Assembly: GCA_035331745.1 (NCBI GenBank)
Contig: DAOLKF010000055.1
Location: 3,961 to 28,266 of the forward strand
Length of the DNA stretch: 24,306 bases
From: Leptospiraceae bacterium
GTDB taxonomy: Bacteria > Spirochaetota > Leptospiria > Leptospirales > Leptospiraceae
Direction of reading: 5' to 3'
The translations under genes were made by a program, and so were the position numbers. Shown piece by piece: positions 15,759 to 16,142 of this stretch (its first letter is position 1; each line of letters begins with the position of its first letter). The notes under the pieces are model-generated. The model was not told the DNA's origin. It saw nothing but the letters and a program-made list of their open reading frames with translations, and did not search any database.

Positions 15759-16142
15759 TTAATTGCACCAACTTTTATCACCACTTGCAATTGCTTTACA
15801 CTGTGCAGAGCTACACCAAGATTTATCTTTAGAAGCAACTCCTTTGCAATCAGAATCATTGCACCAACTTTTATCACTACTTGCCCATGCTTTGCAAAGA
15901 GGAGAACTACACCATGACTTATCTTTAGATGCAACTCCTTTACAATCATTTGTCTGACACCAACTCTTGTCTCCACTAGCAATGCCTTTGCAATCGTTAG
16001 TTGTGCACCAACTTTTGTCTTTGCTTGCTATGCCTTTACAATCTCCCGAAGACAGGGAAGAGATGAAATTACTTCCCCAATCAGCAGCGGCGAGGTTAAT
16101 AGAGATTAACCCCATAAACAAAATTAACTTAATTTTATTCAT
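15759..16142 (-). CDS. small secreted cysteine-repeat protein (signal peptide + 6 tandem 16-aa repeats DCKG(I/V)AS(K/G)DKSWCxxx)
   Basis: 127 aa. N-terminal MNKIKLILFMGLISINLAAADW signal peptide. Six consecutive 16-aa repeats, each with two Cys spaced C-x10-C (12 Cys total). AGGAG RBS 7 nt upstream. 24 bp upstream of the hybrid kinase and 38 bp downstream of the MVP-like gene. Confidence 0.7.
   Translation of the reverse strand: MNKIKLILFMGLISINLAAADWGSNFISSLSSGDCKGIASKDKSWCTTNDCKGIASGDKSWCQTNDCKGVASKDKSWCSSPLCKAWASSDKSWCNDSDCKGVASKDKSWCSSAQCKAIASGDKSWCN
15762..16043. repeat. coding tandem repeat, 48-bp period x about 6 copies
   Basis: Nucleotide-level near-identical 48-nt units (such as gcaccaacttttatcaccacttgcaattgctttacactgtgcagagcta) underlying the 16-aa protein repeats. 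They produce spurious overlapping ORFs in other frames (15704..15982-, 15763..15957+, 15967..16164+). Confidence 0.85.

Follow-up and report, generated by a model that had tools for sequence, protein, structure and literature searches.

The stretch of DNA analyzed here, referred to as the window, comprises 24,306 nucleotides of a Leptospiraceae bacterium (Spirochaetota; NCBI GenBank assembly GCA_035331745.1, contig DAOLKF010000055.1, positions 3,961 to 28,266 of the forward strand). It harbors a small gene for a cysteine-rich protein, hereafter the Cys-repeat protein, which consists of an apparent export signal, a short conserved lead-in and six tandem units (Table 1). The gene lies between one for a protein resembling the eukaryotic major vault protein (MVP) and one for a hybrid histidine kinase (HK). 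An initial annotation, made from the sequence alone, had drawn attention to the repeat and had proposed several roles for it; we address here the nature of the repeat module, the family to which it belongs and the functions that can be envisaged for it.

Table 1. Cys-repeat gene, its parts and its neighbors (positions in the window; aa, amino acids; AF2, AlphaFold2; dN/dS, ratio of non-synonymous to synonymous substitution rates; ORF, open reading frame; pLDDT, predicted local distance difference test score; TRF, Tandem Repeats Finder)
Feature	Position	Strand	Basis or content
Cys-repeat protein, complete coding sequence (127 aa + stop)	15759..16142	minus	ATG-started ORF; ORF list, dN/dS, homologues
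Shine-Dalgarno AAGGAG	16150..16155	minus	7 nt upstream of ATG; direct sequence reading
Putative signal peptide, aa 1-20 (MNKIKLILFMGLISINLAAA)	16083..16142	minus	predicted cleavage after A-A-A; sequence reading
Conserved lead-in (N-cap), aa 21-33 (DWGSNFISSLSSG)	16044..16082	minus	alignment A1; AF2 pLDDT 91 over residues 21-30
Six-unit repeat module, aa 34-127	15762..16043	minus	unit table, identity matrices, TRF, AF2
Unit 1	16043-15996	minus	DCKGIASKDKSWCTTN
Unit 2	15995-15948	minus	DCKGIASGDKSWCQTN
Unit 3	15947-15900	minus	DCKGVASKDKSWCSSP
Unit 4	15899-15852	minus	LCKAWASSDKSWCNDS
Unit 5	15851-15804	minus	DCKGVASKDKSWCSSA
Unit 6	15803-15762	minus	QCKAIASGDKSWCN
MVP-like protein, 832 aa, homologue of eukaryotic MVP	16181-18679	minus	Pfam MVP_shoulder 2.7e-24, Vault_3, Band_7
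MASE1-PAS-HisKA-HATPase-REC hybrid kinase	13278-15734	minus	Pfam
Chemosensory-like cluster: methyl-accepting chemotaxis protein fragment (window edge), CheW, CheA, CheB, then extra HK and single-domain response regulator (RR)	18777-24269	minus	

In protein order, the sequence runs MNKIKLILFMGLISINLAAADWGSNFISSLSSG and then through the six units. Its N-terminus (MNKIKLILFMGLISINLAAA followed by DW) has the layout of a Sec signal peptide, with a basic n-region, a 12-residue hydrophobic core and an AxA c-region, and is the segment with low pLDDT in the AF2 model. The lead-in follows a family motif, W-x3-[YWF]-I-x2-LS-x-G, with an invariant W22 and with S31 conserved to 90% or more in alignment A1. 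The initial annotation had taken the whole mature protein to be made of repeats; in fact, these 13 conserved residues precede unit 1. The remainder holds 12 Cys, arranged as six C-x10-C pairs on a strict 16-aa period, with the unit pattern D/L/Q-C-K-[GA]-[IVW]-A-S-x-D-K-S-W-C-x3. The earlier description as a secreted mini-protein with six 16-aa C-x10-C repeats and 12 Cys is thus upheld in its ORF, period and Cys count, while export is read from the sequence layout. The more restrictive unit motif proposed at the time, DCKG(I/V)AS(K/G)DKSWC, describes four of the six units, but not unit 4 (LCKAWASSDKSWC) or unit 6 (QCKAIASGDKSWC), whose departures from it recur at the same positions in orthologues. 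Other frames of the repeat region also contain three overlapping ORFs (64-92 aa), as had been reported.

At the DNA level, the units turned out to be considerably more diverged than the perfect 48-bp array of near-identical 48-mers originally described. TRF does pick up the array (scores of 128-276), with a period of 48 or 96, but matches amount to only 59-78% at the shorter period and to 84% at the longer one. Compared pairwise in DNA, the full 48-nt units share 58-85% identity and their 39-nt cores 58-89%; most pairs fall between 58 and 74%, and units 3/5 and 4/6 reach 80-89%. Amino-acid identity between units (56-93%) lies above the DNA identity, which argues for old duplications held by protein selection and not for recent slippage. 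Comparison of the 93-aa repeat core with the orthologue of another Leptospiraceae metagenome-assembled genome (MAG; locus L008) gave 95% protein and 84% DNA identity, with proportions of synonymous and non-synonymous differences (pS and pN) of 0.71 and 0.045 and a dN/dS of ~0.02; for a further orthologue (L015) dN/dS was ~0.06, both ratios coming with saturated dS. Strong purifying selection acts on the Cys-repeat ORF, which is a real gene.

The protein belongs to a family of limited distribution. A word-indexed search returned 27 close homologues, and when 1.84 billion cluster representatives were searched exhaustively with a profile, only 187 matched at E <= 1e-3, 114 of these at E <= 1e-10; from the profile matches, P0047, P0146 and P0159 were dropped as low-complexity false positives. 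A scan of 185,579 species genomes located the gene at 49 loci, most of them in MAGs of Leptospiraceae/Spirochaetota or in Myxococcota (Kofleriaceae, Polyangia, Myxococcaceae), with Minicystis rosea DSM 24000 (CP016211) as the only cultured genome. Myxococcota-like, GC-rich versions also turned up in a few MAGs that bear the labels Proteobacteria, Enterobacteriaceae or Rickettsiales, and we suspect binning or labelling noise behind these labels. The family is confined to Leptospiraceae/Spirochaetota and Myxococcota.

Throughout this distribution, the layout of the array is strikingly constant. Counting the window together with the 49 genome loci, 46 of 50 loci, sampled across species genomes, show six regular units. 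L021 and L027 have six once degenerate units are read, contig ends truncate L019 and L022, and L034 is a longer fusion to a Somatomedin-B domain. All 12 Cys are invariant in alignment A1 (C35/46/51/62/67/78/83/94/99/110/115/126), as are the unit-specific residues L82 and W86 of unit 4 and Q114 of unit 6. The consensus of 276 units is D-C-K-[GA]-[IVW]-A-[SKR]-x-D-[KA]-S-[YW]-C-x-[ST]-x, with a spacing of 16 residues in 227 of 247 steps and with positions 14 and 16 as the most variable. Window units 4 and 6 also match best, in DNA, the same-numbered units of the orthologue. Together with the position-specific residues, these same-numbered matches indicate that the six units are orthologous one-to-one across two phyla and that the array is ancient and, at the loci readable in full, fixed.

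Besides this constancy, the relation between the two phyla deserves mention. The core encoded at 15765-16043 of the window, in a low-GC Leptospiraceae genome, shares 87% protein but only 64% DNA identity with its counterpart in a Kofleriaceae MAG (L007, DASXCY010000030). A lipoprotein-type Leptospiraceae paralogue from the same MAG as L008 (L030) is only ~58% identical. For one subtype, these sequences suggest an ancient horizontal transfer between the phyla, followed by codon amelioration.

Every complete member of the family carries an N-terminal export signal, either a signal peptide or, in a minority, a lipobox (for example P0011, P0014, P0015, P0019 and P0023; spirochaete-style in L028-L031). 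In the wider family, secreted proteins that have nothing else in common carry a module of 5-8 units as their N- or C-terminal domain. Among them are P0054, a WG-repeat protein of 964 aa, the lipoproteins P0096, P0103 and P0112, which have coiled-coil-like regions, and proteins in which the module is N-terminal to unknown domains (P0028 and P0030). In P0037 and P0059, a Somatomedin-B domain (PF01033, E 4e-8 and 2e-9) stands upstream of the module, and the same fusion is found in L034 (~1990-2737). Somatomedin-B is a disulfide-knot domain that is uncommon in bacteria, and here it occurs on bacterial lipoproteins. The fusions to Somatomedin-B, WG repeats and lipoproteins place the module outside the cytoplasm and mark it as portable; judging from these architectures, it behaves as an oxidatively folded extracytoplasmic domain.

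Structure prediction gave a consistent picture of the module. With the family alignment, AF2 reached a mean pLDDT of 90, ~98 over residues 31-127, and a predicted template modelling (pTM) score of 0.78. In each unit, an 8-residue alpha-helix (x-D-C-K-G-I-A-S) is predicted, followed by a 3-residue helical turn (K-S-W), both with pLDDT 96-98. A divergent lipoprotein paralogue (P0014, 52% identical) is modelled with the same helix and turn pattern at pLDDT 96-98 and a pTM of 0.63, with a ~45-residue disordered linker between lipobox and module, so that the predicted helix and turn of each unit recur in two subfamilies. The pairing of the cysteines can be approached from the limits of the module, which always opens at the first Cys of a C-x10-C pair and closes one residue past the last Cys, and from the 5-unit members of the wider family, which have exactly 10 Cys. 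Given these boundaries and this count, pairing across the C-x4-C linkers would always leave two invariant Cys unpaired. Six intra-unit disulfides, Cys(i)-Cys(i+11), would be the most economical scheme.

None of the available resources recognized the protein, in agreement with the initial annotation, whose author did not know the motif either. Scans against Pfam, NCBIfam, PHROGs and PADLOC returned sub-threshold noise only; DUF3551 (E 0.007), IBR (0.046) and phrog_31718 (0.002) were among these matches and were set aside. A sequence-profile search of the PDB found no match at E <= 10, and Foldseek against the PDB found no solved structural analogue (best E 4.6). A full-text literature search with the unit motifs CKGIAS, DKSWC and CKAIAS returned nothing relevant. 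The family is uncharacterized, with neither a curated family entry nor a solved analogue in the PDB.

Altogether, we favor, with moderate confidence, the explanation that the gene product is a new kind of disulfide-stapled helical-repeat module, exported as a stand-alone copy, which would offer a rigid domain for binding or scaffolding in the envelope or the medium. According to this model, Sec-dependent export and cleavage of the signal peptide would yield a mature protein of ~107 residues, folded as one compact domain from the short lead-in and the six 16-residue units. Within each unit, the Cys(i)-Cys(i+11) bond would pin the helical turn onto the 8-residue helix, and the units could then stack into a rigid mini-solenoid. 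Its small core would be built from the Cys pairs, Ile/Val/Trp, Ala and Trp/Tyr, whereas Lys, Asp and Ser/Thr would be repeated along the surface. The most likely role of such a protein would be that of a stable extracytoplasmic binding or scaffold module. The same module would be used in several forms: free in the periplasm or medium as in the window, lipid-anchored via a disordered linker as in the paralogues, or placed N- or C-terminally on larger secreted proteins.

Several points weigh against this explanation. Expression, secretion and disulfides are all predicted, from sequence and from models, and we infer the disulfide connectivity from the module limits and the Cys counts. AlphaFold2 can be overconfident on idealised repeats, and low scores were given to one of the five models of the first AF2 run and to two of the five of the second. 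The gene context points to no ligand, partner or phenotype, so that a binding or scaffold role is the default reading. With about 12 of its 16 positions conserved, a unit has little surface left to vary, which would also fit a small invariant ligand such as a metal ion.

This last point leads to the main alternative, which we regard as unlikely: a thiol-based periplasmic Cu/Zn buffer or storage protein, comparable to bufferins, oxazolins or the Csp copper-storage proteins, whose 12 Cys, reduced or enzymatically modified, chelate metal. In format, the closest analogue is the bufferin/oxazolin/'CxxxxC' group of MNIO-modified metallophores, which are ribosomally made, post-translationally modified peptides (RiPPs). 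They are small, have a Sec signal and 6-12 or more Cys and use short two-Cys repeats (17 residues in oxazolin EGKCG); the Sec signal with 12 Cys recalls Buf2 ('Buf_6/12Cys'), and the two-Cys repeats of ~16-17 residues recall Buf_EGKCG/oxazolins (PMC12452194). The C-x4-C spacing between units and the conservation of nearly all unit positions also speak for metal, as does a single clade labelled 'Deltaproteobacteria' (L004 4931-7933 / L005 70-690), in which Cu-binding_MopE motifs occur in a beta-helix protein of 1000 aa encoded directly upstream. No other metal-related neighbor was seen; this one accounts for 2 of 119 neighbors and is not recurrent. A Sec signal and a Cys-rich core are, moreover, generic and not diagnostic features. 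Bufferin and oxazolin families are defined by operons with MNIO (DUF692/MbnB_TglH_ChrH), DUF2063 and DoxX (PMC12452194), whereas the Cys-repeat gene is unlinked to all three in the window and in the annotated contexts, and none of them recurs among the 119 neighbors at 40 loci. The motifs differ as well, D-C-K-G...S-W-C versus E-G-K-C-G, with no EGKCG in the Cys-repeat protein; the DUF2282/bufferin signature gave no relevant Pfam match and no NCBIfam match at E <= 0.1, and no other NCBIfam or Pfam metallophore model matched. Oxazolins are described as beta-helices of variable copy number, in contrast to the predicted helical fold and fixed array of the Cys-repeat protein. No His or Met ligands stand beside the Cys, oxidation is the normal state of exported proteins whose invariant Cys come in pairs, and the fusion to the disulfide-knot Somatomedin-B domain points in the same direction. 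Of the disulfide-looped or metal-binding periplasmic repeat that was proposed initially, the exported and disulfide-looped half is, in general terms, supported by the 12 invariant Cys and the universal export signal, whereas no positive evidence for metal emerged.

The remaining alternatives fare less well; a kinase ligand, a cyclic-peptide precursor and size-variable alleles had all been raised in the initial annotation. The protein could be a locus-specific partner that binds or modulates the downstream MASE1 hybrid kinase from the periplasm, or that assists the upstream MVP-like protein, with which it would probably be co-transcribed; the genes share a strand, with 38 bp between the MVP-like gene and the Cys-repeat gene and ~24 bp from there to the kinase start, there is no promoter or terminator consensus between them, and the order is conserved in the nearest relative, L008. 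We consider this very unlikely, since the linkage is found at only one of the 49 loci, the kinase sensor of L008 is a PAS array and not MASE1, and the next-closest orthologues (L015 and L016) adjoin unrelated genes, namely those for restriction enzymes, a deaminase, an NHL protein and cation efflux. The MVP-like protein, furthermore, is without an evident export signal in its sequence, whereas the Cys-repeat protein appears to be exported. A polyprotein or RiPP precursor, cut into six disulfide-cyclised signal or pheromone peptides of 12-16 residues, would agree with the head-to-tail units, the conserved C-x10-C loop, the short Ser/Thr/Asn/Asp-rich linkers and the export signal. It is, if anything, even less probable: no conserved protease, maturase or exporter adjoins any family member, the number of units is constant at six, each position in the array keeps its own unit differences across phyla, and the linkers, which include the most variable positions 14 and 16, have no conserved cleavage motif. 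A single folded domain is predicted confidently, and the module is embedded in proteins of 200-960 aa. The least probable option in our view is a contingency-type locus, whose 48-bp array would expand and contract to give size-variable alleles. The tandem periodicity at 48 and 96 bp, the similarity of units 3/5 and 4/6 and the 5-8 units of the wider superfamily would speak for such a locus, and a few 4-unit proteins exist (P0020-P0024), albeit only on short metagenome contigs. One of them, P0020, is 79% identical to the 6-unit P0006, but its contig measures 679 bp at 2.3x coverage, so that a true deletion and a merging of the similar units 3 and 5 during assembly are equally likely. Most unit pairs are too diverged for slippage, and the six-unit layout across loci and the one-to-one orthology across two phyla, together with this divergence, argue for an ancient fixed repeat and against variability.

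A conserved partner was also sought at the other loci. Three annotated contexts had no common neighbor, an all-against-all clustering of 1,694 neighboring ORFs found nothing common beyond shallow clades, and when the nearest ORFs of 40 loci, 119 in number, were surveyed with Pfam, 118 families were seen, none more than three times. There is no conserved partner at the loci examined, be it a maturase, MNIO/DUF692, DUF2063, DoxX, a radical-SAM enzyme, a protease, an exporter or a sensor. A promoter and terminator scan around the Cys-repeat gene likewise found nothing above shuffle expectation.

In working principle, the closest documented analogue of the favored disulfide-stapled module is the Hcp/Sel1-like group. 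The Helicobacter Hcp proteins are secreted helical-repeat proteins with one disulfide per repeat (PMC3851747). Like the Cys-repeat protein, HcpA/B/C (Sel1-like) are small, Sec-exported and composed entirely of tandem helical repeats, forming a super-helical scaffold that is thought to mediate binding (PMC3851747); the two invariant Cys per unit and the export signal of the Cys-repeat protein would fit one disulfide per repeat as well. Their repeats, however, have 36-38 residues and two helices, the Sel1 profile describing an alpha/alpha repeat of 36-44 residues, as opposed to 16 residues and a single predicted 8-residue helix, and the Cys-repeat protein has no Sel1/TPR match in Pfam and no structural match in the PDB. 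Very short repeats are also seen in disulfide-braced solenoid antifreeze proteins. Those of the insect Tenebrio molitor, for instance, are beta-helices of 12-residue repeats with a T-C-T ice-binding face. Repeats of 12-16 residues, Cys bracing of a solenoid and a ladder of identical side chains would be common to both, but the Cys-repeat protein is bacterial, predicted to be alpha-helical and without a sequence or PDB structural match. Cys-rich short repeats are, finally, common in secreted proteins of Myxococcota, as exemplified by the Myxococcus cysteine-rich repeat (TIGR02232/DUF4215) and the Cu-binding_MopE motif; none of these models matches the window protein (NCBIfam E <= 0.1, Pfam E <= 1).

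We speculate that the 16-residue unit represents an undescribed fold, a single-helix, disulfide-stapled alpha mini-solenoid, possibly amongst the shortest alpha-helical solenoid repeats. It could serve for recognition outside the cytoplasm as a module that moves between proteins, with a near-invariant ladder of Lys, Asp and aromatic side chains that binds a ligand which is itself periodic or invariant, such as a glycan, a metal or the surface of a mineral or of ice. Horizontal exchange would have carried it between Leptospiraceae and Myxococcota, as the 87% core identity across phyla would suggest. This broader proposal is a tentative one, and we hold it less firmly than the favored explanation itself. 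If the structural prediction holds, the family would be an unannotated domain family with a compact, regular fold and six disulfides for which no solved analogue was found, and it would interest structural biologists, protein designers in search of ultra-short repeat scaffolds of high stability, and database curators, for whom alignment A1 could be the basis of a new Pfam or InterPro entry. The extreme conservation in two unrelated phyla and the reuse on diverse secreted proteins imply an important extracellular binding function in environmental Leptospiraceae and Myxococcota; the findings have no bearing on phase variation, peptide signaling or two-component sensing.

The neighboring genes offer observations of their own. 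Residues 462-768 of the MVP-like protein align to rat and human MVP structures (7pkz, 4hl8; E 4e-10), and no NCBIfam or PADLOC family matched the protein. A bacterial MVP of near-eukaryotic length may merit its own study. The extra HK and single-domain RR lie directly upstream of the MVP-like gene, and the chemosensory-like cluster to which they are joined may represent a Che-type pathway with a non-motility output. The gene order of the window, CheA-CheB-HK-RR-MVP-like-CysRep-HK, recurs only in L008 (Leptospiraceae MAG JANYCR010000053), where the MVP-like protein is 90% and CheA 81% identical. The kinase of L008 (8317-11067, plus strand) has a four-PAS array instead of MASE1, and its HisKA-HATPase-REC part is 52% identical, which looks like a swap of the sensor domain between close relatives.

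The left half of the window is core chromosome, comprising pntAB, PilZ, rnpA-yidC-jag-mnmE, malic enzyme, clpS and an NAD-dependent dehydrogenase. A strand switch occurs at ~13280, all genes to the left being on the plus and all genes to the right on the minus strand, and the two convergent end genes (12416-13285, plus; 13278-15734, minus) overlap by 8 bp. GC skew flips its sign at the same place, ~13280, with a peak of the cumulative skew near 13 kb.

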